Virus record (IMG/VR): IMGVR_UViG_3300033156_000439
Location: 17,824 to 81,823 of that record
Reading direction: 5' to 3' (one strand)
DNA from: a virus
DNA length: 64,000 nt
The stretch's first letter is position 1, and each line of letters opens with the position of its first letter. Position numbers and translations under genes: made by a program. The notes under the pieces were generated by a model. It made no database searches, was not told the DNA's origin, and saw only the letters and a list, made by a program, of their open reading frames with translations. Positions 1-64,000 of the stretch are shown one piece after another.

Positions 1-90
1 TAAATGCCCAAATCTGACTATCGCAACATTTTGCTCGTCCTCAGGGATTCCTACTACTTCAGCGGGGGATGAAATAATAATTTCATTCAT
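1..90 (-). CDS. 5' part of an array paralog, running off the window
   Basis: Manual translation MNEIIISSPAEVVGIPEDEQNVAIVRFGHL closely matches the N-terminus of the gene starting at 603 (MKELLIATPAEVVGISKNEENTAIVRFGHL). Confidence 0.8.
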   Translation of the reverse strand, partial: MNEIIISSPAEVVGIPEDEQNVAIVRFGHL

Positions 91-603
91 TACCATATTT
101 CACACATTTCCGGTTCAAGCACCTTTCTAAACATAGTGAGTAATCCAACTCCTATGTTTTTTAAATCTTCCGGTGTTTCATTTGTATGTTTCAGAATTAC
201 TCCATTAAAATTCCAGATTTCCATCGTCTTCCACGATCTCCCGAAACGAGGAATGGTAGAAGCTTTATATAGGGAATGATTATACATCCAATACAGCTTA
301 CTGAAATCCTTCTCTGAGATAGACAACAAAAGACCTGCTCCTTTAGTAGAATAATTTCGAAAAAGATTATAAGTTTCAATTTCCTCTATTTTTCCCATGA
401 TATAGTCGATCTTTTTCTTGAGCTTGACTTCGAAGACAATATAGTAGGTATCGTTTTCGATAAAAGACACTAATTCTATTATTGACTTGATATATTTTTT
501 TTGGAAACTTGAACAAATGCCCGAATCTTACGATTGCAGTATTTTCTTCATTTTTAGAAATCCCCACTACTTCAGCAGGAGTAGCTATCAGAAGCTCCTT
601 CAT
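90..603 (-). pseudogene. Array paralog split by a frameshift at an A8 tract (ORFs 376..603 + 90..470)
   Basis: Removing one A from the A8 run (495-502) gives ...FPKKYIKSIIELVSFIENDTYY..., a ~170 aa protein ending in the family motif GVILK..EDLKNIGVGLLT. Confidence 0.75.
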
Positions 604-606
604 TTC

Positions 607-858
607 CTACGGCTCAATTCGTTCCGGCTCTCCCCATTCTGTTGCTGAAAATCCTTTCTCGCATTTTAATCGTTTCAAAATAACCGTCATCATGTCTAAA
701 AGTTGTGTTTCGCTTAGACAAGTGAATTCTCGTCCAATGGTAAATTGAATACAGTGTCCGTATTTCCGTCCTCCCACGAAGGCTGTTAAGAGTAAGTCTT
801 TACCGCCTCTGAGATCTTTCTCATCAATTGATTCGTATATCCTTATATTCTTGCTCAT
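607..858 (-). CDS. Hypothetical viral protein interrupting the array
   Basis: 83 aa ORF, co-oriented and tightly packed, lacks the family motif. Confidence 0.6.
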   Translation of the reverse strand: MSKNIRIYESIDEKDLRGGKDLLLTAFVGGRKYGHCIQFTIGREFTCLSETQLLDMMTVILKRLKCEKGFSATEWGEPERIEP

Positions 859-1030
859 CTTTCCCTCTTATCTTAATCTCATTGCCATAGGAGTATTCGA
901 GTGTAAGACCACCTTAAAATCTTGCATGATTCGCATATATTTCGCTTCTATGCAAATTTTTCTTCGACCTTAATATTTTCTATGTGCTGACTTCAAAATT
1001 TTGTTATATCACATTTATGTTGATCTGACA

Positions 1031-1510
1031 TCACATAAGGTAATCATAGTCTGCTGGAGAGAGAAGACTCAATACACCAACGCCTGTTTCGATGAGTTCC
1101 TCTTTCTTTTCGCTATCAGAAACCAAAATTACTCCTACAGTGAGAGGACTAATGCGCATTTCTCCTTTCATTCCTCCTAAATAATAATTGGTAAGACAGG
1201 ACAGATAAACGTGCAATTTGTAATCATAAGAGGCTACGAACTCAATCTCTTTGTTTACATGAACACGTATTTCTTGCAGATTAAGGGAAACTATTTCTTT
1301 CTCCAAATTGAGAAGCAAGAGGATGTTCTCATTCCTTATGCTAAATCTTGAAGGAAAGGACTTAGTTTTTGGAGAGAGACGCAAAGTATAGATTTTAGCT
1401 AAGAACTTCTCTGAGCGAGGAAGAGTAAGTCTATTTAAAATTATCAATTTAGTACTATCTTTCTCGAAGAAGAATTTGAGAGAATCTGAAACGAAAGGTA
1501 TTAGCTTCAT
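1031..1510 (-). CDS. Array paralog (MxLIPF subfamily)
   Basis: N-term MKLIPFVSDSL; C-term GVILVSDSEKKEELIETGVGVLSLLSP. Confidence 0.8.
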   Translation of the reverse strand: MKLIPFVSDSLKFFFEKDSTKLIILNRLTLPRSEKFLAKIYTLRLSPKTKSFPSRFSIRNENILLLLNLEKEIVSLNLQEIRVHVNKEIEFVASYDYKLHVYLSCLTNYYLGGMKGEMRISPLTVGVILVSDSEKKEELIETGVGVLSLLSPADYDYLM

Positions 1511-2017
1511 TTACATATACTTTTGAAGAATTTCGTCAGGTGAATAAACGCTCAACATTCCGGTACCAACTTCGATGACCTCTTCTTCATTTTCATCTTC
1601 ATCGTAAAAGACGACCATACCTGTTAGAGGAGGACTAACATGCAATTCCCCATTTCCCGCCTTATATAATTTATTATTATTATTATTATTAGTTATATTT
1701 ATTATATTATTATATATTTTATTATTATACGTACTGTGTAAGACAAACTTCATTCTTTTTTGGGCACATATCTTGAATATAGGAATAGAGACAATTGTGT
1801 AGTCTTTATTAAGAATCAACATGATCTTCTTATCTTCAATACAAAACGTTAAAGGGAGAGAGACATTGTTGATAGTCAACTTTCTTCTATAATAATAAAC
1901 TTTTCCTAAAAATCTAAAAGAATAGGAAAGATAAGTTTTGTCGATAATCTCCAGTGAAGGACTCTCTCTTGCAAAGAAGAACCTGAGTGATCTCGAAAAG
2001 AATGGTATTAATCTCAT
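1511..2017 (-). CDS. Array paralog (MxLIPF subfamily) with poly-Asn insert
   Basis: N-term MRLIPFFSRSL; C-term GMVVFYDEDENEEEVIEVGTGMLSVYSP. Confidence 0.8.
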   Translation of the reverse strand: MRLIPFFSRSLRFFFARESPSLEIIDKTYLSYSFRFLGKVYYYRRKLTINNVSLPLTFCIEDKKIMLILNKDYTIVSIPIFKICAQKRMKFVLHSTYNNKIYNNIINITNNNNNNKLYKAGNGELHVSPPLTGMVVFYDEDENEEEVIEVGTGMLSVYSPDEILQKYM

Positions 2018-2494
2018 TTATTTGTTCTCCATTACAAACTCGTATGCCTTTCGTCTTATCTCTCCTTTTGATAGTAAACAAAGATAAGCTACTCCTATCT
2101 CCTTCAGTTCTCCAGAGTTAAGCCCCTCCTCTGAAATAATGAAGACTCCCGTGATATCCAAGGCTATTGCAGCACGATAGATAGGAAAATCAAAGAGTTC
2201 TTTAAAATCTGCAAGCTTCTTTCCATACGTTTCCAAAGTCATATATAAGTAATCACGTCTGGAAGTCGAGTATTTCAATAAATCTAAATGACAAACTCTG
2301 AATAAGCACAATTTCTTTCTGAATCGAATTAGAAAGTATATATTTTTATGTTTATCTGAAATTATGCACTTTGCTTTTCTTACAAGAATCGAAGGATATT
2401 CTGGAAGAAGCGGATTGGTCTCAATCCAGAACGTAATACTTTCGTTTTCTACTTCTATCTTTACTGTGTCCGAAAAGAAGGGTATTAGTTCCAT
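2018..2494 (-). CDS. Array paralog (MxLIPF subfamily)
   Basis: N-term MELIPFFSDTV; C-term GVFIISEEGLNSGELKEIGVAYLCLLS. Confidence 0.8.
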   Translation of the reverse strand: MELIPFFSDTVKIEVENESITFWIETNPLLPEYPSILVRKAKCIISDKHKNIYFLIRFRKKLCLFRVCHLDLLKYSTSRRDYLYMTLETYGKKLADFKELFDFPIYRAAIALDITGVFIISEEGLNSGELKEIGVAYLCLLSKGEIRRKAYEFVMENK

Positions 2495-2506
2495 CTTTCT
2501 CCAGAT

Positions 2507-3025
2507 CTATTCATCTTTTCCTGAAAGAGTCAAGTATGAAACTGCTAATTCATACACTTCTCTTTCATTCTTTATCTCACTACTCGAATAGACCAATATC
2601 AATCCTTTTAGAGGATAAGTTTGTGTGAAGTCATAGAGGTACGGATATTTCCAATTTTCAAACGGGGAAAGGGTTAGTATTAAATAACGAGTGATATCAA
2701 CGTAGCTTGGAGGAAAATTGTTATGCGCAGAAGTCGAATTAGGATTGACAACATAATAAACGTTCTCTGGAAATCCTTTTAGTGATGATGAATATTCTGC
2801 ATTTACAACACTTCTAAATTCAAAGCTATGGAGATGAAATGGCACATATCTTCCTTTCAAAATGAAGATACACGCAGCTCGTTTGTCTTTATCGATTAAA
2901 CTAATTGGCAGTTCAGGATCGGACTGATCCAATTCAAACTTAAATTGAAGACGCTGGGATGAAAAATCGAGGGATATATCGGTAGTATTCTCTTTCAATA
3001 CGCCATTAATTTTATAGGCTTCCAT
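2507..3025 (-). CDS. Array paralog
   Basis: C-term GLILVYSSSEIKNEREVYELAVSYLTL. Confidence 0.75.
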   Translation of the reverse strand: MEAYKINGVLKENTTDISLDFSSQRLQFKFELDQSDPELPISLIDKDKRAACIFILKGRYVPFHLHSFEFRSVVNAEYSSSLKGFPENVYYVVNPNSTSAHNNFPPSYVDITRYLILTLSPFENWKYPYLYDFTQTYPLKGLILVYSSSEIKNEREVYELAVSYLTLSGKDE

Positions 3026-3029
3026 TGTA

Positions 3030-3482
3030 TTACCTCACAATGGTTAAATAGGCTATTCCTAAGTTGATCAGATCCTCTTCAATCTCTTCTTCACAACTCA
3101 AGACTATTCCTTCGAATCCCCATAGCGAGAAAAGTCCTTTGATTTCAAGATCTTTATAGTTTAGAGGGGATCTGATCACTAATTCTTCTATCAATCTACT
3201 ATACTCTTCAAATTGTTTCTTTTGGAGTGGTGAAAATTCGATCCAGATGCTATACGGAAAGTGTGCAATTCCATTATGTTTGAAGCGTATAGAAGTTATT
3301 TTTCCTATTAATACTTTTTCGTTTGATAATGTAAATATTAGATAAGAGGGGACGGGTTGAGAAAGCATGTCTCTTAATTGTCTAAGGAAAGCTCTTGACA
3401 CACTCCAATTTATCGAGAACGTTTGTTTTGAATCATCCTTTCTCACTAAGACTCTAAATTCTGAAATTCGTAGAATATTCAT
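3030..3482 (-). CDS. Array paralog
   Basis: YLIF..LIGKI core; C-term GIVLSCEEEIEEDLINLGIAYLTIVR. Confidence 0.8.
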   Translation of the reverse strand: MNILRISEFRVLVRKDDSKQTFSINWSVSRAFLRQLRDMLSQPVPSYLIFTLSNEKVLIGKITSIRFKHNGIAHFPYSIWIEFSPLQKKQFEEYSRLIEELVIRSPLNYKDLEIKGLFSLWGFEGIVLSCEEEIEEDLINLGIAYLTIVR

Positions 3483-3985
3483 ATTAAGACTCCTCCATCA
3501 AGAAATAGATAAGCTGATCCGATTTCTTTTATCTCGTTAGGATTTGCTTTTCTGTGAGACTTTAAAACCAATCCACATACGTGCCAAAACTGTTGCTTAT
3601 TAAGAATGTTCTCCATTTCCGTATAGTCTATGACGTCTAACATAGAACACTTTAGGTTTATTAAGTAATACTCTTTTGATGATACTCTTGTCCATACATC
3701 TTCAAGACGGCACAAATAGAAACTGTGTGTAGAAGGTACCGCGAAGGGATGTATTAAAGAAAATAGAAAATAATGAGGGTATTTCTTGTTATTGAGATCA
3801 CTACTTATATCTAAGAGAGTTTCAAATTCACTCTTAGAGAGAATTGGTACATCAAAAGAAATTTCTTGTTCCCAAAACTTTCCTGTTTCTACTAAAGCAC
3901 TCCAGCCTTTCTTTGTTCGAAACTCGAAGATTACTTCTATTTTCCCTTTTTCTTTCTCTTTTTCTTTCTTAAAAATGTTAAACAT
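3479..3985 (-). CDS. Array paralog
   Basis: C-term GLVLKSHRKANPNEIKEIGSAYLFL. Confidence 0.8.
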   Translation of the reverse strand: MFNIFKKEKEKEKGKIEVIFEFRTKKGWSALVETGKFWEQEISFDVPILSKSEFETLLDISSDLNNKKYPHYFLFSLIHPFAVPSTHSFYLCRLEDVWTRVSSKEYYLINLKCSMLDVIDYTEMENILNKQQFWHVCGLVLKSHRKANPNEIKEIGSAYLFLDGGVLI

Positions 3986-3997
3986 ACTAATTGAGAG

Positions 3998-4609
3998 TTA
4001 TTCAAAATTTTCTTTGAGTCTTTTAAGCACAATTTGTTTTCCTAATCTTCGAGCATACACATAGAGTTCTGAAGTCTTTACTTTCTCATCTTGCAATCCC
4101 TCTTTTATACACTCTAAGCCTCCGCAATACTGGGGTTTATCGAGGCAATCAATTAAAGTCTTTTCTCGATTAGTAATCCATATTCTCGTTTCGTTTATGA
4201 AGCCACTCTGTAAGCCAAACATTTCATTTGCATGAACAATCCAAAAATCTAATCCGAGTATCTTGAGCCTCCTACTTCTCTCCGTAGTTTGAATGAATAC
4301 TGTATTCGGGATTTGACTGGTTAGACCCAAATAGCTCAGAGCGCTCCAATAAGCTATCGCATAAGGCTGAACAATCGAAGACGCTAAAATGTATTCATGT
4401 TCAGTATACTTCCCTTTCTCTGCACCCAAAGGAATTATCATGTACTTACCTCTATAAATTCGTTCTATCCATCCTGCTTTCTCAAGCTCTTGAAGGAACC
4501 TCACTATTTTCTTTCTGTTTCTCGACTCATCAAGTTCGACTGCATCTTCAATCGAAAAGACGCTTTTGTTACTTCTGACTAATTCATCTAATAATTTAAT
4601 TCTTTTCAT
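3998..4609 (-). CDS. AbiEi-family (type IV toxin-antitoxin antitoxin) transcriptional regulator
   Basis: N-terminal wHTH (LEKAGWIERIYRGKY) plus AYWSALSYLGLTSQIP and TNREKTLIDCLDKPQYCGG motifs typical of AbiEi/COG5340. Confidence 0.85.
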   Translation of the reverse strand: MKRIKLLDELVRSNKSVFSIEDAVELDESRNRKKIVRFLQELEKAGWIERIYRGKYMIIPLGAEKGKYTEHEYILASSIVQPYAIAYWSALSYLGLTSQIPNTVFIQTTERSRRLKILGLDFWIVHANEMFGLQSGFINETRIWITNREKTLIDCLDKPQYCGGLECIKEGLQDEKVKTSELYVYARRLGKQIVLKRLKENFE

Positions 4610-4630
4610 TTAAAACTAAATAGGTGTATC

Positions 4631-5014
4631 CTAAACATTTAGCGTCTTCGGGGTCAGTCCCTTGGAGAATAATTCCGTGTACTGTTTCCCATAGTATTCC
4701 TTCCCATAGACCAAGGAGTTTTTTACTGCCTCGTATTCGTTTTGATTTAAAATAGTTCCTTCCAAGTCTGCTATGAGTAATGTTTTCTTCCTTCTTACTA
4801 CGCGAATATCATCCAATTGACAAATAAATAAGTTAATATCTTCTCTTTTTATGTTAAATACGAGATAGTAAATAAATTTTTTAAGTTTTCTTTTTATCTT
4901 CAAGAGTAAATCTCTTTCTGCTTGGCTTATTACGATAGTTATTGCCACTCCCAGAATTTTATTTCTGTTTAAGCCTATTTCTCCATCAAATCTTTCGAAC
5001 TCAAATTCGATCAT
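4631..5014 (-). CDS. Array paralog, C-terminally truncated
   Basis: Has the YYLVFNIK..LFICQL core but lacks the C-terminal motif; ends just before the AbiEi gene. Confidence 0.6.
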   Translation of the reverse strand: MIEFEFERFDGEIGLNRNKILGVAITIVISQAERDLLLKIKRKLKKFIYYLVFNIKREDINLFICQLDDIRVVRRKKTLLIADLEGTILNQNEYEAVKNSLVYGKEYYGKQYTELFSKGLTPKTLNV

Positions 5015-5604
5015 ATCCTGTCATCCTCATTTAAGAGTAAATAAGCATACCCCAAATTTTTAATGTCTTCACGACTCTCTTCCTCCGTCTTAAGTAGTAA
5101 TCCTTTCATGTCCCACGCTTCAACTCTCCATTCTCTTCTGTGATTCCGAGAAGTTTCGGCTATACCAAACGCTGACTGTGACATCGTAGTAGTCATCTCT
5201 TCCATGTAATTGCAACCTGAAAAGTAAATCGAACGCATTGATTTAGTCAGGTCCTCATGTTCTTTTTCTTCCATCTCAAGTGTTAACTCGATGATTGCTA
5301 ATGGATCCAACACGGAGTATCTCGGTTGGGATAATATATTCCCCTTTAATAATTTTCCGACGAAACAATTTTCTTTAAAAAGAAACACTAAATAGTAATT
5401 ATCGATGCCAAACGTAGTTTCATTTATAACTTCCCTTGTATTGTGTAGAAATTTACTGTTGTACTTGTGAATAAAAAATGATATATTAAGATAACTCGTA
5501 TCCTCTTTTATGTATGATTTTAGTAACGCTCTCCATGAGGATATGAATAAAGAGTTCATTTTACAAGCCTTTCCCCAGCAATGTGTATCAATTGCCTCAT
5601 TCAT
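5011..5604 (-). CDS. Array paralog
   Basis: YYLVFLFKENCFVGKL core; C-term GLLLKTEEESREDIKNLGYAYLLL. Confidence 0.8.
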   Translation of the reverse strand: MNEAIDTHCWGKACKMNSLFISSWRALLKSYIKEDTSYLNISFFIHKYNSKFLHNTREVINETTFGIDNYYLVFLFKENCFVGKLLKGNILSQPRYSVLDPLAIIELTLEMEEKEHEDLTKSMRSIYFSGCNYMEEMTTTMSQSAFGIAETSRNHRREWRVEAWDMKGLLLKTEEESREDIKNLGYAYLLLNEDDRI

Positions 5605-6143
5605 TTCAGATAAGTAATATAACCCACCATGAGTCTCTTAATGTCTTCTAACGTTTCATTCTCCTTTTTCTTGATGACTATGCCCATGAATGAGAACATG
5701 TTTGATCGCATCCATCCTTTCTGAATTCTTCGTGTGATTGAATCCCACCACTTTCCTATTCCAGTAACTTCAGAGGAAAAGAAATACGAAGAGGCAGTAA
5801 ATTTAAACATTGCAAGTAACCTCATAAATTTGTCTCGGTCACAAGACGCGAGGAACAATCTTATGATAGCATCGTCCTCGTCAGGATATACTTTACACAT
5901 TTGGAGAGAAGAACTTAGTATTCGAAAGAGCAAGATATGATTTTTAAATCCGTCTGAGATTTCAAGACATAAATACGCATCTGCTGAAGATTTACTGAGA
6001 TCTTTAATTTTTTGTATTATTTCTGGATCAAAAGTCGGAAATGTTAATTCAACATAATTCGGAATACGCTTATCAACGAGGAATACTGCCGTGGCTGTCT
6101 TTATGAGAATTATATCATTATTTATTGGCTCAATCGTTTTCAT
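5601..6143 (-). CDS. Array paralog (closest to 6140..6673)
   Basis: GKWW..I..GWMRS; C-term GIVIKKKENETLEDIKRLMVGYITYL. Confidence 0.8.
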   Translation of the reverse strand: MKTIEPINNDIILIKTATAVFLVDKRIPNYVELTFPTFDPEIIQKIKDLSKSSADAYLCLEISDGFKNHILLFRILSSSLQMCKVYPDEDDAIIRLFLASCDRDKFMRLLAMFKFTASSYFFSSEVTGIGKWWDSITRRIQKGWMRSNMFSFMGIVIKKKENETLEDIKRLMVGYITYLK

Positions 6144-6673
6144 AAGCAGGTAAGATATCCCAATCCTAACCTTCTTAAGTCCTCTAAAGTTTCACTTTGT
6201 TTTTTTCTAATGACTACTGCTTTAAAAGGAAAGATGCTTGATCTTACCCATCCTTTTTTAATCTTATACGATATTAATTCCCACCATTTGCCAGTGGTAG
6301 TCACTGGTGAAAATAAAGGACTTGAGATAGAAAAGGGGAAACTTTTAATCAATTTGGTGAAATCGTCATCATCAAGCGGACTAAGATAAAATCTGACTAT
6401 GGAATCGTCTGTATTGGAATTTATTTCTAAGGGTTGTAGAGTAAAATCTTCTATTTTAAAGAGAAAGTTTAATTCTTTACCTCTCGGATTCTGAAATGCA
6501 GAACTCAAATACAAATCTGAGAAGTTTGAGACATTAAGTAAATTTCGTAATTGGTAAATAGCATTTGGATCATCGCACGGAAAACTCAGATCTATATAGT
6601 CCCTAAAGTGTTCATTGACAAGGAAGAGTGCAACAGAGTTACTCATCTGAATTACGTCCATTTCCTTCGACAC
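6140..6673 (-). CDS. Array paralog (closest to 5601..6143)
   Basis: GKWW..I..GWVRS; C-term AVVIRKKQSETLEDLRRLGLGYLTCL. Confidence 0.8.
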   Translation of the reverse strand: MSKEMDVIQMSNSVALFLVNEHFRDYIDLSFPCDDPNAIYQLRNLLNVSNFSDLYLSSAFQNPRGKELNFLFKIEDFTLQPLEINSNTDDSIVRFYLSPLDDDDFTKLIKSFPFSISSPLFSPVTTTGKWWELISYKIKKGWVRSSIFPFKAVVIRKKQSETLEDLRRLGLGYLTCL

Positions 6674-6681
6674 AGTTATGT

Positions 6682-7119
6682 TTACAATAAAGTGAGGTAT
6701 GCCGTCCCTATGTTTTTGATCTCGTTAGTCTTTTCTCCTTTAATTTCAAATGCTACTCCTTTGAATTCACTTGTGGCAAATGTCCACTCCTTACTGTCGA
6801 AGGGGTTATGGTGACACGATAAAGATTTTACCTCTTCACTGCTAAGAGTTATTTTGAATGATAAACTCAATGGTGGAGTAATAAAGCGAGAATAAAACGG
6901 ATCATATTGAAAATCGGTCTCCACTCCGTTGCGAATCTTCCCAATGTATATTTTCTTCTTCAACTTAAAAACCAGATATTTATTTTGAGATTCTTTTTTC
7001 ATGTACTCTTTGAGTTCCTCAAAGTATTTGCTTCATCCCCAAAAATATATCGTGATCAAACCCTCCCGTTTAATTCGATTGATCCTCAGATGTGCTTTAT
7101 ATCCAGATACACGGATCAT
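6682..7119 (-). pseudogene. Array paralog with an in-frame TGA at codon 29
   Basis: ATG at 7119 with a purine-rich RBS is in frame with ORF 6682..7002: MIRVSGYKAHLRINRIKREGLITIYFWG*SKYFEELKEYMKK...; TGA at 7033-7035; C-term GVAFEIKGEKTNEIKNIGTAYLTLL. Confidence 0.7.
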
Positions 7120-7134
7120 TATTCTTCTCTCCCT

Positions 7135-7589
7135 CTACGTTATAGAACTCTCGATATCCTCAGGTGAAAGGACTGCCAATATTCCCCTGCTCACCTCAAT
7201 CGCTTCTGCCTCTTCGTTTTCACTGTAAAATGTTAATGTGCCAGTAATCACATCAGAAATTCTAATTTCTCCGTCGAACGAGAATCCACACCGGTCTAAG
7301 AGGGATTGTTGACGACTTCTTGCTATGAACATTCTCCATAGACGCCATCGTATACAATCTATTGGGAGAGCAATTATCTTGCGTTTCGTTTTCAGTATAG
7401 CCAAAGCGGGTTCAGGATTGAATTGAAAATGGAGTGGTAGTTTTTGCTTTTCTCTTCGTTTAATAATTCGTAAATTTGAGATAGAAATTTTTCGGTTATT
7501 AAACGATGATAGTCTACAAGATAGAGTTTATCATCATCTTTGAATCTTAACTCCAAATATTCGGTGATAAAAGGGACTATCTTTATCAT
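7135..7589 (-). pseudogene. Array paralog split by a frameshift (ORFs 7392..7589 + 7135..7404)
   Basis: N-term MIKIVPFITEYL. After about 7440 the alternative frame reads KLPLHFQFNPEPALAILKTKRKIIALPI, aligning with SLPLTFCIEDKKIMLILNKDYTIVSIPI of 1511..2017. Confidence 0.7.
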
Positions 7590-8821
7590 GCACTTCTTCC
7601 CTTTCCTCCTTCGTAAAAGACTGTTCTTCCAAACGGAAGTTTCTGATGTCTATCTCTAAGACTGTCCGGAACCAGCCAAATCACTGGAAAATTTGGTGCA
7701 CTGTCTGGAGACGTGCCATACGTATCTGTAACGTATATCAAACCCCTGAGCTCTGGATATTTTTCAATCTCTTTAAAGACTGGTCTAAAGTCCGTGCCTC
7801 CTCCTCCCTTCCACTCAATCTCATCAAGTTCTTCGGGACTGTGTATCCAGTGTTTTACCTGAACTTTAGCATCACATTGAAGCAGTAATACGTTCAGGTC
7901 TCCCTTGAAATATGAGAACAAGAACTGCATTCCTGCCTTGAATTCAGAAAGTAGTTCAGTATCTATTGAGCCACTTGTATCAATGGCTACACATATCTGA
8001 AGTCTGTTCCTTCCTTTGATTTGGGGATATAGCAACGGCGGATACCGCCTTTTGTGTAATCTTTTCCAATTCCGTTTACTATAACTCCTTTCAAGTACAA
8101 AAGAAGATATAATTTCACTGATTGGAAGAGGAGGATGAAGTATGTTTAACACTTCTCTTTTTAAAGAGGCTGGTAACGTACCCTGCATGAAAGAACGTAA
8201 AAGGGACTGTCTTATCGTCCGTCCCAATGCGTCATTCTTGCTGTGTTTCCATATTTTGTGACCTTGAAGACGCTTTTTCCCTTCAGTATTTTTGCCCTTA
8301 CTATTTTCTTCCCCTTGTCTACTTTTAGGTTCTGATTGTCCTCCACTTGCAGACTGCCCACACTGGGATTGTTCTCCAATACCTTGAAAATTCTTCATGA
8401 GTTCTCTATACACTTGCTCAAACGTCTTGCCTGTATATTTTTCATCGAATAGAAAAGAGGACGGTAAATGTCCAAACTCCTCTTTAATTATAGCGTTGGT
8501 AACATAATCCGCTGCCATATTTGCTATTTCCCATTCTACGTCATTGGTTGCGATCTTTAGTCTTGAATCCCATACATGAGATAGAAGTATATGAAGATAC
8601 TCATGGGCTAAGTCGAATGTGAGATCACTTGGAGAAATTCTATCAAGATAATCTTCGTTCAAGTAGAAGGTCTTTCCATCAGTGGCTGCTACTTCAATTG
8701 GCACTCCTCTAAATTCCCTACCTATCTCCACTGGTATGGTAAGCACTCCTGACCAAAATGGCTTCTTCTGTAAGAACATGAATTTTGCTCGTCTTATTTT
8801 CTTGAGATAATTTTCATTCAT
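7586..8821 (-). CDS. Metallopeptidase-like + vWA domain protein (DUF2201-type)
   Basis: AATDG and LAHEYLH (HExxH) in the N-terminal domain, low-complexity linker, then MIDAS DTSGS, GGGGTDFRPVF and YVTDTYG. Confidence 0.9.
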   Translation of the reverse strand: MNENYLKKIRRAKFMFLQKKPFWSGVLTIPVEIGREFRGVPIEVAATDGKTFYLNEDYLDRISPSDLTFDLAHEYLHILLSHVWDSRLKIATNDVEWEIANMAADYVTNAIIKEEFGHLPSSFLFDEKYTGKTFEQVYRELMKNFQGIGEQSQCGQSASGGQSEPKSRQGEENSKGKNTEGKKRLQGHKIWKHSKNDALGRTIRQSLLRSFMQGTLPASLKREVLNILHPPLPISEIISSFVLERSYSKRNWKRLHKRRYPPLLYPQIKGRNRLQICVAIDTSGSIDTELLSEFKAGMQFLFSYFKGDLNVLLLQCDAKVQVKHWIHSPEELDEIEWKGGGGTDFRPVFKEIEKYPELRGLIYVTDTYGTSPDSAPNFPVIWLVPDSLRDRHQKLPFGRTVFYEGGKGRSA

Positions 8822-9072
8822 TTCTCTTCATTCAATAAACATAAAATATAGGAGTAAGAAAGTAATGAAACACGCTATCACTATATCTTCCATTATTTCA
8901 TTCTTTATGATTTCTCGTTTTATTTCTTCTATATCTATTTCTTCTATATCCGAGTCCATCTTGATTATTTCCTCAAATCCACATATATTGCATATATCAA
9001 AATTTGTGTTTATTCACGATAAATTCTATTGGCTTGAGTAAAAAATTTGCGTGAGGGTGAAATATGTGCATC

Positions 9073-9255
9073 TCACACTGAATTCTTTGCTTGTTCTATA
9101 TAGTTTTTCAATCTTTCCCATTCATCCCAGAATAGAAATATATTATCTCCTCCTACATACGTATCTCTCAATCTTAATCCTTCCTCTTCAATTTCTACTA
9201 CTATGTCTTCAAATCCCTCGTGACCTTTTATTCTACCTCGTTTTAGGATGGGCAT
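9073..9255 (-). CDS. Small hypothetical protein
   Basis: 60 aa ORF in the operon. Confidence 0.55.
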   Translation of the reverse strand: MPILKRGRIKGHEGFEDIVVEIEEEGLRLRDTYVGGDNIFLFWDEWERLKNYIEQAKNSV

Positions 9256-9439
9256 TTTGTTCCTCCTGAGTTTCTTCTATGACTTCTTCCTCCCTCTTTC
9301 CGTCCATGTCCATAAGCAGACTTCCTATGATTATAAGCATCATGCCAACAGTAAGCGGGAATTCTGTATCAAAGTACTGAATTGATAGAACTACTCCCCA
9401 AGCCAGTAAGGCTCTACCGATGCACTGAAAAAATGTCAT
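9233..9439 (-). CDS. Small membrane protein
   Basis: Two hydrophobic segments and an acidic tail; ATGA-coupled to the ATPase. Confidence 0.6.
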   Translation of the reverse strand: MTFFQCIGRALLAWGVVLSIQYFDTEFPLTVGMMLIIIGSLLMDMDGKREEEVIEETQEEQNAHPKTR

Positions 9440-10503
9440 TCTCCACTCAGCAATGGCAGTATCTCTTTACCTATGTTCTTCATCAGTTCCCTAAAGTTCT
9501 CATCACCGAGCATCTTTGAAAACATCTCTGAGGGCATTGAGTTCTTGTAATCTACAAGGAACGCTGCTGCCCCCTCAACGAATCCACCATATTCGGGATC
9601 CTTTCCCTTCTCCCAAATCGCTCTTACATATTTAAAGTACGCCTTTGAGTAGCTCATTTGCTTCTTCGAATTCTTCTCTCTACTTATCACGGAAAGAAGA
9701 GTTTGTATTGTGTAGGTTAGGACGTCAAATTCACTCGGTATATCACTAACGTCTCCTTTCAATATCTTTTGTATGTCTGGAAGTTTATCTCTTAAATCTG
9801 TGAAGGCTAAGAACTTGGCTGCCACTGAACCCCCGATCGAACCAGAGAGATCTTCGATGCTTGACAGTCCTTGCTCTAAGAGAAGAGATACTCGTTCCCA
9901 TCCTCTTCCACAAGTTACTTTCTCTCCTCTGTGCTCTGGCAGTATATACAGGTCTTCGGGATGAGCACTCAAGTAGGCTATAATCTCTGGAGCGATGTGA
10001 TTTTTCAATGCCCACGCTTTCCATACTTGTATGTCAGGTTCTACGTAGATCTCATGAAGACGTGCTTCGAGTGGTATCTCAAGATCCCCAACGACTGCTC
10101 CATGTTCTCTCTTGTTTCCCGTTCCACATGGGACTATTCCATCTGGTAGTGGTGTATCTCCGATCATTCTGTCGTAGAATACACGATACAGTGCTTTCTG
10201 CATTTCATTGGAAGCGTGATTCAACTCATCGAACAATAGGAATCCTTGAGCATCATCTGGATACTTTGCCCACTCTGGTGGAAGTTGAAGAACCACTCCG
10301 GAACTTGGATCTGGAACTGTCCAGCCTTCCAAATCAGGGGGTTCCAAGGTTAGCAACGATTTAGAAACGCAAAGCACTCCCATCTCTTGAGCAGTTTGTC
10401 GTATGATCGAAGACTTCCCCACTCCAGTTGGACCCCAAAGAATAAAGGGAATCCTCTTTTCGTATAATTTTTTAATTCTTTCTTTCGTTTCCCGTAGGTT
10501 CAT
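9436..10503 (-). CDS. MoxR-like AAA+ ATPase (probable partner of the DUF2201 vWA protein)
   Basis: Walker A GPTGVGKS, Walker B LLFDELN, DLEG, GTGN, PLEARL and RGWERVS motifs. Confidence 0.9.
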   Translation of the reverse strand: MNLRETKERIKKLYEKRIPFILWGPTGVGKSSIIRQTAQEMGVLCVSKSLLTLEPPDLEGWTVPDPSSGVVLQLPPEWAKYPDDAQGFLLFDELNHASNEMQKALYRVFYDRMIGDTPLPDGIVPCGTGNKREHGAVVGDLEIPLEARLHEIYVEPDIQVWKAWALKNHIAPEIIAYLSAHPEDLYILPEHRGEKVTCGRGWERVSLLLEQGLSSIEDLSGSIGGSVAAKFLAFTDLRDKLPDIQKILKGDVSDIPSEFDVLTYTIQTLLSVISREKNSKKQMSYSKAYFKYVRAIWEKGKDPEYGGFVEGAAAFLVDYKNSMPSEMFSKMLGDENFRELMKNIGKEILPLLSGE

Positions 10504-11972: not shown

Positions 11973-12332
11973 CTAATCATATTTTTTAATTATGGACTTA
12001 ATCTGATACGAAACTTCTGCAAGACTATCGAACTTGCCCCACCAGTATCTTTTGTCTTCACTCTCTGTGGCACAGTCCTCTGCCCAATCTCTTTCCCCTT
12101 TTATGCACACTAATAAGTTTTTCAGTTCTTCAATGATGTCCTTTGACATTTCAGATCTAAGTTGTTCATAAGTTCGATTAGGTAGATTTGAACGAAAAAG
12201 ACTAAGTAATTTTGTTGTATCTTCAGCTATTTCATCATCACTTGGAAAATCTGAAGGAGTCAATTCAATTTTTAGAGGATGACTCGATCTGGCTCCGTGG
12301 ATTTTTATTGTTTTCATTTTATATGTACCCAT
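11973..12332 (-). CDS. Hypothetical protein
   Basis: 119 aa co-oriented ORF. Confidence 0.6.
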   Translation of the reverse strand: MGTYKMKTIKIHGARSSHPLKIELTPSDFPSDDEIAEDTTKLLSLFRSNLPNRTYEQLRSEMSKDIIEELKNLLVCIKGERDWAEDCATESEDKRYWWGKFDSLAEVSYQIKSIIKKYD

Positions 12333-13209
12333 ATAGTTTGGCTAAGATTATAGACTTGTTCCCAGATTTATCTGTACTCTTGATTATTCGTTCTTCCCCA
12401 TCTTCTTCGAAAACAAAAGCACCTCCCCGTGATGTCACATAATTATAGGCTTCTTGTTTATCCCTGAAGGATAGTTTTTTGACCACATCGAGAAACTGTT
12501 CCCCTCTGAAATAAGTGCCCTCAACTCTACCATCCTCTTTACTATCCTTATTTTCTTTCTTTTTCTTGTAGTCTTTTACTTCGTATTTTCCTTTACCTAC
12601 TTTCACTATTTTTCCTCTCTTCCCCCAACCTGTATCTTGATTATAGAAGCTACGCCAGTCCCATTTCCATGTAAGATCTGTAAATCTACGTTTTCCATCT
12701 ACTCGGAAGCTGCCAATCAAGATAGGATCTTTTCTTCGTTCCAACAAAAGCACAAACTTTGATCCTCCGAGCATTTCTTGGAACTCCTTTGATAACATCA
12801 TTAGAATTAACTGCCTCTCTGTTAGTCGAAGAGAAGACAAAAACAAGGTAAATTTCGCTGTATCGCTAAGTTCATCGTAACTATTCCATGACGAAAACGC
12901 CGACATGTGTCCTCTGTGGAATAATATGGCTCTCCTCTTTCCTTTCAGTGTGACTACGAACGGGTGAGTTAGTTTCGGTTTGACCTCCCCAGCACTCGCC
13001 ATCCTCCAGTGTGATACCACCGGATACTTTCCTTGTACCTCATCAAGAACTTGATATGCACCATCTGGATCCATCAAGCCTTTCATTACGTTCCACTTGT
13101 TTCCTTTGAAATACGCAAACCCGAACCCATCAGGATTCTGGTTCCATATTTTCTCGAACTCGTCGTACTCTACTTTTCCGCCCTCTTTAATCACGGCTAT
13201 TTGACACAT
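12319..13209 (-). CDS. Class II glutamine amidotransferase (Ntn hydrolase)
   Basis: Cys2 nucleophile (MCQI), NPDGFG, HWRMASAG, THPF and SDT motifs. Confidence 0.85.
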   Translation of the reverse strand: MCQIAVIKEGGKVEYDEFEKIWNQNPDGFGFAYFKGNKWNVMKGLMDPDGAYQVLDEVQGKYPVVSHWRMASAGEVKPKLTHPFVVTLKGKRRAILFHRGHMSAFSSWNSYDELSDTAKFTLFLSSLRLTERQLILMMLSKEFQEMLGGSKFVLLLERRKDPILIGSFRVDGKRRFTDLTWKWDWRSFYNQDTGWGKRGKIVKVGKGKYEVKDYKKKKENKDSKEDGRVEGTYFRGEQFLDVVKKLSFRDKQEAYNYVTSRGGAFVFEEDGEERIIKSTDKSGNKSIILAKLYGYI

Positions 13210-13210
13210 C

Positions 13211-13567
13211 TTATTTCTTCCTCCTCCTTCTTCTAAATAAACACTCTATTGCTCGTTTCAACCGTTCAGGATCTCTTCGAATCATTTTTTGTCTGAAGGT
13301 ATACGGTAAACCAACAATTATAGTTCTACCATCCATGAATCTGTTTAAACTCTCAGAATTTATGATCCTCAAGTCACAGTCGATTAGATTTTTCTTCACG
13401 ATATTATAGCTCTTCGGATCCCCAACGTATACTCTATCACCGTGAGAATATGACACTCCGAAGACTACTATTCTCTCGATCCCTGGAATATCCACTTCAA
13501 CATCGACCTCCTCTCGTGGGAGATGGTCATCATATCGATTACATACTACTTTCATTGAAACAAACAC
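13211..13567 (-). CDS. Hypothetical protein, paralog of 13552..13860
   Basis: Shared MKV..,(I/V)xRIxVFG and VGLPxxFR..LKxx(I/L)xCLF. Confidence 0.7.
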   Translation of the reverse strand: MFVSMKVVCNRYDDHLPREEVDVEVDIPGIERIVVFGVSYSHGDRVYVGDPKSYNIVKKNLIDCDLRIINSESLNRFMDGRTIIVGLPYTFRQKMIRRDPERLKRAIECLFRRRRRKK

Positions 13568-13860
13568 CTCAGAACTTTTTTCAAAACTTCTGTATCACCT
13601 TTGATATACTGCAATCTAAATAAATGTGGTAGTCCAACACCTATTACACCTTCTTCCTTTTCTCCTCGAAAATCCACTTTGATTATCTTTGCATCAGTTG
13701 TATTTCTTCTGATGTGATCCGCCCACTCGCTTGAAATGAGAATCTCATCTCCACAACTACCGAATACCTCGATTCGTTTAACGTTTTCTAATCCCTTTAT
13801 TTGCATTGGAACTCTTTTTTTAGGCAAGCCCTCAAAATCTCCGATATATGTTACTTTCAT
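13552..13860 (-). CDS. Hypothetical protein, paralog of 13211..13567
   Basis: VKRIEVFG and VGLPHLFRLQYIKGDTEVLKKVLRCLF. Confidence 0.7.
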   Translation of the reverse strand: MKVTYIGDFEGLPKKRVPMQIKGLENVKRIEVFGSCGDEILISSEWADHIRRNTTDAKIIKVDFRGEKEEGVIGVGLPHLFRLQYIKGDTEVLKKVLRCLFQ

Positions 13861-14579
13861 AACTTCCTAACTAATCTTCTTTGAATATCCTCGAATTTAA
13901 AAGGATCTTTTATGAATTTCTTTATGAATAGCGTTACCACGAGTAATTGGCGATACGTAGTTATCTTAGGCAATCTGAATTCGACCGTGCCGAGACCATT
14001 AGTCATTGTATTAACGAAGAAATATCGTTCATTGGGTTCATCTTGATTTGCAAACTCATTTGGATTTCTGCCCCACAGGCGTCTGTCTGTTACAACGTCT
14101 TCGAGATACCCCTGTGCTCTTTCGATTCTTTGCAATTCATCAGAAGACACTCCCACATGAATATGCGATGATACAAGATAAGTCTTTAGATAATCTGAGT
14201 AATCTTCATATATCGGTCTGAGCGACTGAACAAAAGAACGCCTTGACAAATAAATCGGAGATTTCATTTCACAATCGCTCACGGTTGCATCCTCCGTAGG
14301 AAGGAATCCTCTTAATAACAGTCTTGCAAATATTGCAGTTCGAATATGTTTATCTTCTTGATCTGGAGATCGAAACTCGAGTTCGGTGCCCCACGTATAA
14401 TCACCAGTATCCTTGGCTTTTCGTGTGCCTTTTACTATCTCGTTTCTTGATGGGTAAGGATGAGCATTATAGAAGTGGTTATCACAAATATATCCTATTC
14501 CCTTGACGTACACAGAACACGCTCTTTCTCTTTGACACAATCTGCACTTTTTAACATTAAATCCACGGATTCCGATCAT
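13857..14579 (-). CDS. Putative amidoligase (COOH-NH2 ligase fold) with N-terminal Cys cluster
   Basis: WGTELEF, EDATV..CEMKSP, SSHIHVG, RYFFVN and TVEFRL motifs. Confidence 0.8.
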   Translation of the reverse strand: MIGIRGFNVKKCRLCQRERACSVYVKGIGYICDNHFYNAHPYPSRNEIVKGTRKAKDTGDYTWGTELEFRSPDQEDKHIRTAIFARLLLRGFLPTEDATVSDCEMKSPIYLSRRSFVQSLRPIYEDYSDYLKTYLVSSHIHVGVSSDELQRIERAQGYLEDVVTDRRLWGRNPNEFANQDEPNERYFFVNTMTNGLGTVEFRLPKITTYRQLLVVTLFIKKFIKDPFKFEDIQRRLVRKL

Positions 14580-16036: not shown

Positions 16037-16789
16037 TATTTAGGCAGTGGGGCAGGAGCAAAGGAGGGGCTACTAAAGAGAAGCGTAAATTTTTCATCCG
16101 ATAAAGACAGCATCAATCTAAAAATGAATAGTAGAATCTTAATCTCTTTCCTCTTCTGCGTTCTTTTCTTCTCTCTAATAGAGAGAAGAACAAATAAACA
16201 AATAAAGGTATAAAGCATAAGACAAATAGGATAACATAATATGCTACACATAGGGATAGATTGAAAGATGTGCTTAACATTTTGCTTCTCACCTACCATA
16301 TTCTTCATGTATGCAATTTTTATTCTCATGGGTATATTATTATATTCCCCTCATTGGATATTTTGTTATGCTTCATAATTTTGCCCCTCATGTGATTTTC
16401 CCTCACCCTATCCCACCACATTTTGAGTATGTGAGTACCAAATTACAAAAATCCTAAATTTATCGCACATCATAACACAAAGACACCGGTTGGTGTTAAG
16501 CTTTATGTTGTTGTGAAGGATTCCTGGATGTGTGTTATTCCTTCATAAAGATGGCTTGGGATAACACATGTTCATACACAATTGGTATGAATTCACACCA
16601 CATTTTTATGCCGATCTGCATACATCCTGGCTGATGGGTAACACAAGATATGCTCACCCACAGCTTGCCCTCTTACAAAATGCTAAAATGCACACATGTG
16701 TACATGATATTTGAATTTTTCTTTAAGGGTTCATGAAAATTTTTGTTTATGAAAAATAGGGTTAAATAGGGGTTTAACCATAGGGTTAA

Positions 16790-17764
16790 TTGGTGATAAA
16801 AAGAAAAATGAACAAAACATCACCAAAGAAGGAAGAAAAAGAAGCTAAAGGAAGTAGCGAGCCTTTAGCACAAAAGGAGAAGAACGCTAAGGTAGAGAAG
16901 AAGGAAGAAATAAAGGAGGAGGAAAAAGAGGAAACAAGGGATAGGTACGTCATACAATACAATAAGACAACAGAGGAAGACAATTATGAAACGTTGCGGA
17001 AAGAAGGAAAGATGTGGGTAACAGATAAAAAGGAGAAAGCACAAGAGATCGCGGAGAAGCTTCTGAGTAAACATGTGGATTTAACGATGGTAAGGATATG
17101 CAGAGTGTCCAATAATATCCTTATACCGGAGATAGAATTGACCGGTAAGGATATTGTAATGAAAAACAAGGAAGTGTTGCCCAAAGAGATGCAAGGAGTA
17201 ATTAGCGAGGATATGCTACAATACATGGATGACTCAGAGATATCTTCTATCCGCAATTTGATAGCTGAATACATGAGGAAGAAACAAGAGATAGAAACAT
17301 TCAGCAGGCTTGCAGTGCAAAGGAGTGCTTTTAAGAAGAACAAGCAAAAGATGGAAAAGCTTGCGGAGATAAAGCGAAGTTATCAAGCTGCGAAGGAAGC
17401 TTACGAAGAAGCTAAAAAAGCTTGGGAAGAAGCGAAGGAAGCAGTCAACAGTTTCATTGAAGAAGAAGAAAAGCACCTTCCCGCGATCGGTCGATGGCTA
17501 AGAATAGAGATAACCGGTGTGGGAAGAACAGTGAGAAGAACATCGGGAAGGACACGCACGGCGGGGGGCAAAAGGGAGATAATCCTTAAGTTCCTCCGTG
17601 AACATAAGGGGGAAAGGTTCAAAGAGAGCGAAATAAGAAGGAAGCTTCAGGAGATAAACAAAGAATATTCATGGACTCAGCAGTCAACTTGGAACCCCCT
17701 TAAATCCTTGAGAGAGGAGGGGATAATCAGTCAGGACGACAAGGGAAGATATTATCTTCCCTAA
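16790..17764 (+). CDS. Coiled-coil protein with C-terminal winged-helix DNA-binding domain
   Basis: Lys/Glu-rich N-term, heptad region AKEAYEEAKKAWEEAKEA, C-term KREIILKFLRE..SEIRRKL..LKSLREEGIISQDDKGRYYL; likely start ATG 16808 after GGTGA. Confidence 0.75.
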   Translation: MVIKRKMNKTSPKKEEKEAKGSSEPLAQKEKNAKVEKKEEIKEEEKEETRDRYVIQYNKTTEEDNYETLRKEGKMWVTDKKEKAQEIAEKLLSKHVDLTMVRICRVSNNILIPEIELTGKDIVMKNKEVLPKEMQGVISEDMLQYMDDSEISSIRNLIAEYMRKKQEIETFSRLAVQRSAFKKNKQKMEKLAEIKRSYQAAKEAYEEAKKAWEEAKEAVNSFIEEEEKHLPAIGRWLRIEITGVGRTVRRTSGRTRTAGGKREIILKFLREHKGERFKESEIRRKLQEINKEYSWTQQSTWNPLKSLREEGIISQDDKGRYYLP

Positions 17765-17792
17765 TCTACTTTTCTTTAGGAGGGATAGAGAT

Positions 17793-17897
17793 ATGAGCGA
17801 AAGTGAAGAAATATTAAGCAAACTGGTCAAGGTGATAGCGAAGATAAGAGAAGATGAGGAGAAGCTACGAGAAATAGCGAGGAAACTAAAATGCTAA
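17793..17897 (+). CDS. Small coiled-coil peptide (34 aa)
   Basis: Manual: MSESEEILSKLVKVIAKIREDEEKLREIARKLKC, with GGAGG RBS. Confidence 0.5.
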   Translation: MSESEEILSKLVKVIAKIREDEEKLREIARKLKC

Positions 17898-18043
17898 TCA
17901 TTAAGAAGAATCCACTCCATCCCGAAACTGGAAGCTTATTTCTCAAATACCGGGATGGTGAGGAGGGGTTCATAAGAATGATCCCTGCCAGCGAGATGAG
18001 GGAGATCGAGGAGGGGAAAAGGGAGATAAGGAGGGAGGGATAA
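17891..18043 (+). CDS. Small hypothetical protein (50 aa)
   Basis: Manual: MLIIKKNPLHPETGSLFLKYRDGEEGFIRMIPASEMREIEEGKREIRREG; overlaps the upstream stop. Confidence 0.5.
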   Translation: MLIIKKNPLHPETGSLFLKYRDGEEGFIRMIPASEMREIEEGKREIRREG

Positions 18044-20817: not shown

Positions 20818-21311
20818 AGGATACGACCCCAATTCTCGTTAAAAGTACAACAAAGCAGAAACTTTCGGAGGCAAAAGAAATACTTCGGAAGACTTGGGAT
20901 GATTTCCTTGTGTACCTTCTCGAGTTTTATATTTCTCATGCAGATGAGGATGATAAGGAGTTAGACAAGGCTGATGTAATGCGCTATTGCATCTCTTCTC
21001 CCGATACGAGTTCACTCGAGTTCCATAGAGATCAGCTTACGAAGATTCTTACAGATTTGGAACACACATACGCAACAACCGGTGATCCAAAAGACAAAGC
21101 GACAATTGCTGAGAAGATTGCTCGTATTAATGCCTCTCTTAAAGACATTTCAAAAACTGATGAAAGTAGTCGAGTACTTGAAGAGATAGCTCAAATAAAA
21201 AAGAACAGATTAAAAATCTTAAAGAATATAGCTCCAACAAAAACTGTAAAACGAAATGAAGATAAAGAAGAGATATCGGAAACTGAGAGTGAACAAGAAG
21301 CAAATAATTAA
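20814..21311 (+). CDS. Putative terminase small subunit
   Basis: Directly upstream of TerL; RHH-like N-term (TTPILVKSTTKQKL..TWDDFLVYLL) and helical C-term. Confidence 0.5.
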   Translation: MKDTTPILVKSTTKQKLSEAKEILRKTWDDFLVYLLEFYISHADEDDKELDKADVMRYCISSPDTSSLEFHRDQLTKILTDLEHTYATTGDPKDKATIAEKIARINASLKDISKTDESSRVLEEIAQIKKNRLKILKNIAPTKTVKRNEDKEEISETESEQEANN

Positions 21312-63948: not shown

Positions 63949-64000
63949 ATTTCGCGTATAACAAAACTTTTATTGTTAAGAAATAGTAATATATACGGAG

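Follow-up and report, generated by a model that had tools for sequence, protein, structure and literature searches.

A tandem family of diverged small proteins beside a MoxR/peptidase-vWA pair in a relative of Methanophagales virus GBV302

What role could an array of small, strongly diverged paralogs play in a viral genome, and does it act through the MoxR-type AAA ATPase and the metallopeptidase-von Willebrand factor A (vWA) protein encoded beside it? The question is raised by the stretch of DNA analysed here, hereafter the window, which comprises 64,000 nucleotides and corresponds to bases 17824-81823 of one contig of 81,823 bp (IMG/VR record IMGVR_UViG_3300033156_000439). A first-pass annotation had proposed that a constant C-terminal element of these paralogs docks on the ATPase/vWA/peptidase machine, while the variable part picks different host targets. 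In our analysis the undescribed multigene family with a conserved C-terminal element and otherwise diverged sequence held up, but the docking found no support. We read the array, at about even chances, as an orphan birth-and-death family built on one predicted small-barrel scaffold, whose members are most likely host-protein binders for counter-defence or takeover.

The contig opens with 100 bases that are found again at position 81709, giving a direct terminal repeat of ~115 bp (contig 1-115 and 81709-81823; window 63886-64000). This is a sign that the genome is complete and either circularly permuted or terminally redundant, and the virus record is annotated with direct terminal repeats and 100% completeness. 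A Pfam scan identified terminase and portal genes on the contig, and in protein searches the closest relatives of the vWA protein were from Methanophagales virus GBV302 (96% identical) and GBV301 (56%). The source genome is a complete 81.8 kb head-tailed virus and a near relative of GBV302 (Ekchuahviridae). Upstream of the window the contig carries replication and repair genes, where PolB, anaerobic ribonucleotide reductase, and XPF-like, RadA-like and RecJ-like proteins were recognized by reading the translations of open reading frames (ORFs). In the passages of PMC9894754 that deal with them, GBV302 and GBV301 are the two viruses that make up the Ekchuahviridae, a head-tailed family infecting ANME-1 archaea, with genomes composed of a structural arm and an 'enzymatic' arm, the latter varying through multigene insertions and having metabolic and defence functions assigned to it. 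The terms 'paralog', 'vWA' and 'MoxR' do not occur in the main text of that paper. Among the loci used for comparison, L002 is GBV302-like, L004/L019 is GBV301-like, and L007 is a contig nearly identical to the source genome.

Membership and turnover of the array

In the window, we identified 12 minus-strand ORFs whose products end in a common strand-loop-helix motif (90-470, 1031-1510, 1511-2017, 2018-2494, 2507-3025, 3030-3482, 3479-3985, 5011-5604, 5601-6143, 6140-6673, 6682-7002, and 7135-7404). All-against-all BLASTP comparisons linked the ORFs starting at 5601 and 6140 (40% identity, E 8e-43), 1031 and 1511 (37%, E 8e-27), 3030 and 5011 (E 6e-9), and 5011 and 6682 (E 3e-7), and weaker links, chiefly via the C-terminal element, join all members. 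The similarity among members is far above chance and points to a real family. A profile built from 11 window members retrieved members outside the window at E values of 1e-10 to 1e-12. It also placed the array beyond the window edge, at contig positions 16364-17919, where an intact copy (contig 16893-17399), a broken copy (17390-17596 and 17701-17919) and a 52-residue C-terminal remnant (16364-16522) were found. The array covers ~9 kb, roughly 11% of the virus genome, with a genome total of 15 family members and one C-terminal fragment. Ratios of nonsynonymous to synonymous substitution rates (dN/dS) in the following list refer to the comparison with L002.

1..96 (contig 17701-17919, C-terminal part at contig 17390-17596), minus strand: family member cut by the window edge; frame-broken, with an intact 176-residue ortholog in L007
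90..603, minus strand: family member, broken (ORFs 376-603 and 90-470); one additional base in an A8 run near 495
607..858, minus strand: conserved 83-residue gene within the array, not a family member; 49-95% identical in 9 related loci
1031..1510, minus strand: family member of a subfamily with an M-x-I-P-F start and an S-P-[DE]...M end (BLASTP, profile); dN/dS 0.12
1511..2017, minus strand: family member of the same M-x-I-P-F-start subfamily as 1031-1510 (BLASTP, profile); dN/dS 0.14
2018..2494, minus strand: family member (profile); absent from the GBV302-like genome, present in L006/L012
2507..3025, minus strand: family member (profile); dN/dS 0.16
3030..3482, minus strand: family member, modelled with AlphaFold2
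3479..3985, minus strand: family member (profile); dN/dS 0.30
3998..4609, minus strand: orphan AbiEi-type antitoxin gene (Pfam AbiEi_4)
4631..5014, minus strand: family member with a frameshifted C-terminus; motif encoded out of frame, 139-residue L002 ortholog ending in the motif
5011..5604, minus strand: family member, likely start at 5559 by comparison with L002; modelled with AlphaFold2, dN/dS 0.29
5601..6143, minus strand: family member; 40% identical to its neighbour 6140-6673 (E 8e-43)
6140..6673, minus strand: family member (BLASTP, profile, dN/dS)
6682..7002, minus strand: short family member of 106 residues (BLASTP, profile); absent from the GBV302-like genome
7135..7589, minus strand: family member, broken (ORFs 7392-7589 and 7135-7404); its start overlaps the stop of the vWA gene (ATGA)

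The ORF listing and the BLASTP and profile searches bear out the 12 proteins with a shared C-terminal motif and the 14 copies counted by the first-pass annotation, and its central Y-h-h-F strand motif is seen as Y-L-x-F in the consensus of the 42-sequence alignment. Fourteen members do touch the window, but the array runs on past the edge, and the ORFs 3998-4609 (AbiEi_4) and 607-858 (the 83-residue gene) lie inside it without belonging to the family. The single truncated copy that had been reported, 4631-5014, lacks the motif in its ORF but still encodes it out of frame, and it is one of four broken copies.

The family is an orphan in all libraries searched. None of 42 members matched Pfam at E<=0.01, only two of the 42 matched PHROG, both weakly (best E 0.0022), and the best match of a profile search against PDB sequences was at E 0.17. 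An exhaustive profile search of 1.84 billion protein representatives returned 53 clusters at E<=1e-3, 34 of them at <=1e-10. All are of 51-196 residues with one matched stretch each and no fusions, and ten clusters taken from among the weakest or most divergent include no named protein, all ten being metagenome proteins. A tandem array of the family was present in every related locus examined (L004, L006-L014, and L018). What had been called an undescribed viral system is thus a virus-encoded multigene family that none of these libraries describes, whereas its link as a system to the ATPase and vWA protein is unsupported.

The copy number is 5 in L018, 7 in L004, 10 in L002, 15 and a fragment in the source genome, and at least 15 in L006, a fragment of 11 kb. 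The left flank is visible in four genomes or contigs (the source genome, L002, L004/L019, and L018), and all four share the gene order amidoligase, glutamine amidotransferase (GATase), AAA, vWA, array, 83-residue gene and further arm genes, the latter including matches of the 86-, 159- and 199-residue ORFs and of the RecJ-like and RadA-like genes of the source genome. In the comparison with L002, identity is 96-99% in the flanks and 83-100% among array orthologs, and five members of the source genome have no ortholog there; compared with L006, the corresponding values are ~90% for the flanks and 40-74% for the array orthologs. The array evolves faster than its flanks. Against L002, dN/dS was 0.12-0.30 for the eight members having nonsynonymous changes, and 3030-3482 differed by one synonymous and no nonsynonymous change; for comparison, the vWA gene gave 0.14 and the 199-residue ORF and the RecJ-like gene 0.02-0.05 (RecJ-like 0.05). 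The intact copies are under purifying selection, which is somewhat relaxed.

In a maximum-likelihood tree of 54 members, with strong support for 32 of the 50 inner branches, copies grouped by orthologous lineage and not by genome. The changes needed on this tree were 10 of 10 for the window rows, 9 of 9 for L002, 5 of 5 each for L018 and L004, and 11 of 12 for L006. Since the copies of one genome do not cluster, no fewer than ten paralog lineages are older than the split of the known viruses, and a few tandem duplications were added later. From strain to strain, individual copies have been gained, lost or frameshifted. Tandem paralogs, copy-number change among relatives, broken copies and selection on intact copies are together found here, as in a viral birth-and-death multigene family.

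Four of the 15 members are broken in the source genome by +/-1 frameshifts. Copy 90-603 has an A8 run where L007 has A7 and an intact ortholog of 170 residues, and the window-edge copy has A4 where L007, with its intact ortholog of 176 residues, has A5. Copy 4631-5014 is one base shorter than in L002, beside an A6 run, and in copy 7135-7589 the frame switches near 7392-7460. Logan contigs from other samples (X1, X2 and X7) show compensating indels: in all three, one base is missing at 495 and an extra base is present at 4723/4724; behind 7453 an extra base is present in the X1/X2 contigs, while the X7 contig keeps the form of the window. These comparisons are between contigs, not reads, the near-identical tables of X1 and X2 may represent one data set, and the X1/X2 contigs give no cover over about 1525-1778 and 2541-4572 of the window. 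Broken copies were found in six assemblies (the source genome, L002, L004, L006, L010, and L013), with intact orthologs elsewhere. Strain-level pseudogenes or phase-like switching are not separable from assembly error at every site, but broken copies recur in assemblies that are independent of one another, which speaks for a biological origin of at least some of the breakage. An alternative genetic code was ruled out, as other long ORFs are intact under table 11. Upstream of the window, at contig 8183-9212, a DNA methyltransferase-like gene is split into overlapping ORFs of 85 and 274 residues; this may be another frameshift in the source assembly, and bears on the biological or assembly origin of the breaks in the array.

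The gene at 3998-4609 matched Pfam AbiEi_4 with 30.1 bits (cut-off 25) and is likewise embedded in the array in L002, L006 and L012. The cognate toxin AbiEii (PF08843) had no match in the complete 81.8 kb genome, in a search whose control matched three of 14 control genomes. For the 83-residue gene, no PHROG match was obtained. Between the array and this gene, two small Cys-rich, zinc-ribbon-like genes are present in L002 (16575-17160) and L018 (11791-12042 and 12773-13072) and were not seen at the corresponding place in the source genome. The M-x-I-P-F-start subfamily (window 1031-2017 and relatives) carries an extra C-terminal extension, S-P-[DE]-[DE]...[YFL]-M, ending exactly at the C-terminus, and its conserved terminal aromatic or hydrophobic residue and Met might constitute a terminus-recognition signal. 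A scan of the intergenic stretches 850-1040 and 6995-7140 with a seed of 7 found no inverted repeats.

Predicted fold and the C-terminal element

The AlphaFold2 model of 3030-3482, obtained from a 42-row alignment, is a six-stranded beta-barrel with three helices (predicted local distance difference test, pLDDT, 88.2; predicted template-modelling score, pTM, 0.82). Its elements are strand 2-16, strand 21-28, helix 30-40, strand 46-51, strand 57-69, strand 77-85, helix 88-104, short helix 110-114, strand 117-129 and helix 135-149. The model of 5011-5604 (11-row alignment, pLDDT 72.9, pTM 0.71) has the same element order, beta-beta-alpha-beta-beta-beta-alpha-beta-alpha in both. The shared fold rests on these two modelled members, from which a common scaffold, the closed barrel of six strands with its three helices, is predicted for all members. 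The common fold for which the first-pass annotation had suggested a structure prediction was thus obtained for two members, contrary to its counter-case of structures sharing no fold.

In the model, the C-terminal motif comprises the last (sixth) strand of the barrel, a loop with acidic residues and a terminal helix that is largely hydrophobic. Over the 42 aligned sequences, conservation falls mainly on hydrophobic residues that alternate along each of the strands, over the whole length of the protein. Because the motif forms the sixth strand and the terminal helix, and because the hydrophobic periodicity spans the whole protein, it is most readily understood as the best-kept piece of one conserved scaffold, integral to the predicted fold and not an appended peptide. 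A membrane anchor was ruled out, the hydrophobic helix being only ~12 residues long.

The top Foldseek match was the HAS-barrel of HerA (E 2e-3, probability 1.00, 77-80 columns, 22-24% identity), and neither model gave a match at E<=0.001 in PDB or BFVD. In the wide and second-look VIA-align searches the best Z values were 6.4-6.7 and none reached 8, so that the proteins were assigned to no fold family, by which the fold is not shown to be new; all VIA Z values are within the stated noise range of the tool. They include the 1B domains of Sen1/Upf1 and a phage tail protein (6.4-6.5), the siderophore-interacting (FNR-like) FAD-binding domain (6.0-6.2), PilZ (MrkH; 5.9-6.0) and HerA (5.0-5.4), so that the likeness to the HAS-barrel scores below that to the Sen1/Upf1 barrels. 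The ESM Atlas returned only unnamed clusters (0.90-0.91, TM <0.5). The barrels of HerA, Upf1/Sen1, PilZ and the FNR FAD-binding domain resemble the viral proteins in barrel size and strand order, at scores in the noise range, whereas the viral proteins stand alone, have three extra helices and lack an ATPase or helicase core. A HAS-barrel fused to a RecA-like ATPase core was not seen in any of the 53 family clusters (at most 196 residues, one matched stretch each).

The MoxR/peptidase-vWA pair

As the first-pass annotation had stated, the array lies beside a metallopeptidase-vWA gene and near a MoxR AAA gene, both identified here by domain and PHROG matches:

7586..8821, minus strand: DUF2201 metallopeptidase (HExxH) with a vWA-like domain, DxSxS motif of the metal ion-dependent adhesion site (MIDAS) intact (Pfam DUF2201_N 9e-17, DUF2201 3e-21; phrog_1314 9e-65)
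9436..10503, minus strand: MoxR-like AAA ATPase (phrog_1297 3e-65; weak Pfam AAA/AAA_5)

In the vWA protein H73, E74, H77, D281-S285 (DxSxS), T343 and D366 are invariant in 36 sequences, and the AAA protein is 75-76% identical in L004 and L018. The locus thus has a MoxR-type AAA gene near a vWA gene with an intact MIDAS, as expected of a MoxR-vWA system. The two genes are members of the phage MoxR AAA+/metallopeptidase-vWA pair (PHROG 1297/1314), which is also found in group 2.2 jumbo phages (PMC7824862), in Schitoviridae and in Thermus phage phiFa. In the section of PMC7824862 concerned with them, the pairs of jumbo phages are predicted to be virion-assembly chaperones, with the tail chaperone of ATV (Acidianus two-tailed virus) cited.

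The pair is widespread. By tblastn, the vWA protein was matched in 422 phage records, including Schitoviridae, Thermus phage phiFa, phage G and cyanophages, and in the two phage records examined the AAA gene lies 1 kb upstream of the vWA gene or directly beside it. More than 3226 protein clusters, including ones from bacterial and archaeal genomes, match the vWA protein at E<=1e-10. After the ekchuahvirus proteins, the closest vWA clade is 42% identical. At the phiFa locus and one Schitoviridae locus, unlike in the source genome, no paralog array adjoins the pair, and the array proteins are unrelated to either component. In the test of co-occurrence that the first-pass annotation had suggested, 21 DUF2201 loci outside ekchuahviruses (2 phages and 19 bacterial genomes) yielded no match to the family profile, and beyond synteny no association of the family with the pair was seen, the family occurring in syntenic ekchuahvirus loci only. 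Wherever the family occurs the pair is present too, yet this holds for a single syntenic virus family only, and the pair is clearly able to work on its own.

Some further genes near the pair and elsewhere in the window were noted. Between the AAA and vWA genes, at 9233-9439, lies an ORF of 68 residues that resembles a small membrane protein of two helices ending in an acidic tail; its first 44 residues share 64% identity with their counterpart in L004. At 12319-14579, a class-II glutamine amidotransferase gene (GATase_4, 3e-7) and a weak Amidoligase_2 match flank two small paralogous ORFs (13211-13567 and 13552-13860), and all four genes are conserved in L004 and L018. The large terminase gene at 21256-22881 has weak N-terminal matches to archaeal TRASH and YHS metal-binding domains (E 0.003-0.006).

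Possible roles of the array

We take the array to be a lineage-specific birth-and-death family of small soluble proteins (~150-200 residues) in the accessory ('enzymatic') arm of ekchuahviruses. In the predicted fold, the conserved C-terminal strand-loop-helix would close and cap the barrel, the surface and loops of which appear to have diverged almost beyond recognition. Together the copies may form a battery with different host proteins as targets, which they would bind or inhibit in counter-defence or to take over the host. They would probably be co-transcribed with the rest of the arm while working independently of the MoxR/vWA pair. A host-interaction role is suggested because the array is located in the variable arm, shows turnover, and contains an AbiEi gene without AbiEii; such an embedded orphan antitoxin fits a counter-defence neighbourhood. 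Parallels, as we take them to be, are the AcrID1 anti-CRISPR paralogs of archaeal rudiviruses and lipothrixviruses, the multigene families (MGF) of African swine fever virus (ASFV), and the host-range families of poxviruses. Tandem paralogs on a shared scaffold, extreme divergence, copy-number change, pseudogenes and a location in a non-core arm would be common to these and the array. The array was not found to be related to any of them in sequence or in fold, and unlike in recent bursts, its lineages are old and under purifying selection. Several points weigh against this interpretation. The binder or counter-defence role is derived by analogy from genome dynamics, and Pfam, PHROG and PDB searches gave no homology-inferred function for any member. 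Whole-gene dN/dS is purifying and not positive, so that an arms race is not demonstrated. The isoelectric point varies from 5.0 to 9.7 across members with no common charge signature (a role as DNA mimics was ruled out by this range). The array lies directly downstream of the vWA gene in all four ekchuahvirus genomes with a visible flank, which would be compatible with a functional tie.

This last observation is also the starting point of an explanation that we consider unlikely, in which the paralogs would serve the MoxR AAA/peptidase-vWA machine as adaptors or clients that can stand in for one another, the C-terminal strand-helix with its acidic loop docking on the vWA MIDAS or the peptidase and the variable barrel selecting targets to be remodelled or cleaved. 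MIDAS sites bind acidic ligands, and the conserved motif contains acidic residues of this kind; the MIDAS and the HExxH motif are intact, every family-bearing genome has the pair, and the four-base ATGA overlap of the first copy with the vWA stop at 7586-7589, reported by the first-pass annotation, is real. However, the whole arm from amidoligase to RadA is syntenic in the four genomes; since adjacency is then indistinguishable from synteny, it proves little. ATGA-type overlaps are common in the enzymatic arm (9 of 56 junctions), and the vWA-adjacent copy, a broken gene in the source genome, differs between genomes: in L002 another member follows the vWA gene after a gap of 45 nt, with no overlap. 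When the peptidase-vWA protein (36-row alignment) was modelled in complex with 3030-3482 (42-row alignment), both runs scored 0.00 and gave no answer, which speaks neither for nor against binding. The modelled motif is an integral barrel strand with a hydrophobic helix and not a flexible tail, and the pair is widespread in phages and cells without the family, which leaves the proposed docking tag unsupported. A more speculative and rather improbable variant would see the last strand and the hydrophobic C-terminal helix as a common plug that lets the at least ten ancient lineages engage one shared partner. This would be either the MoxR/peptidase-vWA machine, with the array as an adaptor library for the remodelling or proteolysis of host proteins, or each other, in mixed barrel rings mimicking HerA HAS-barrel-like host domains; the poly-A frameshifts would then be on/off switches varying the expressed repertoire in the population.

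A part in morphogenesis, with the barrel proteins as assembly accessories or ring-forming subunits (cf. tube, Hcp, HAS-barrel) handled by the MoxR/vWA chaperone, seems highly unlikely to us. Tail-tube and baseplate proteins, Hcp and the HerA HAS-barrel account for many of the weak structural neighbours (Foldseek HerA E 2e-3; VIA Z 5.0-6.4), and the virion-assembly role predicted in that section of PMC7824862 would suit it. These Z values are nevertheless in the noise range and tied with those of unrelated barrels (Upf1/Sen1 1B, PilZ, FNR FAD-binding, efflux adaptors), the genes are in the non-structural arm at least 15 kb from the terminase, portal and capsid genes, and a copy number from 5 to at least 15 with frequent breakage is unusual for structural parts. 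That the array is functionless, consisting of decaying duplicated DNA or mis-called ORFs, is largely refuted and can practically be discounted: the four broken copies out of 15 in the source genome would agree with decay, but the dN/dS of 0.12-0.30 for intact copies, the persistence of orthologous lineages in viruses whose flanking proteins are 40-60% different, the confident fold prediction, and the intact state in other samples of copies broken in the source genome all contradict it.

A battery of host-protein binders is thus the interpretation we favour. About 11% of the genome is devoted to a single orphan family. Selection maintains it even though its copies are reshuffled from strain to strain, which is the usual signature of host-facing genes. 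The idea that a widespread phage MoxR/peptidase-vWA module works through this family is attractive but unsupported, and is corrected here. The methane-oxidising ANME-1 archaea control methane release from marine sediments, and to our knowledge their viruses are known only from metagenomes. Being compact and confidently foldable, the family supplies candidate proteins that can be tested for a part in archaeal counter-defence or host takeover, and it might also yield a new binder scaffold of the small-barrel type.

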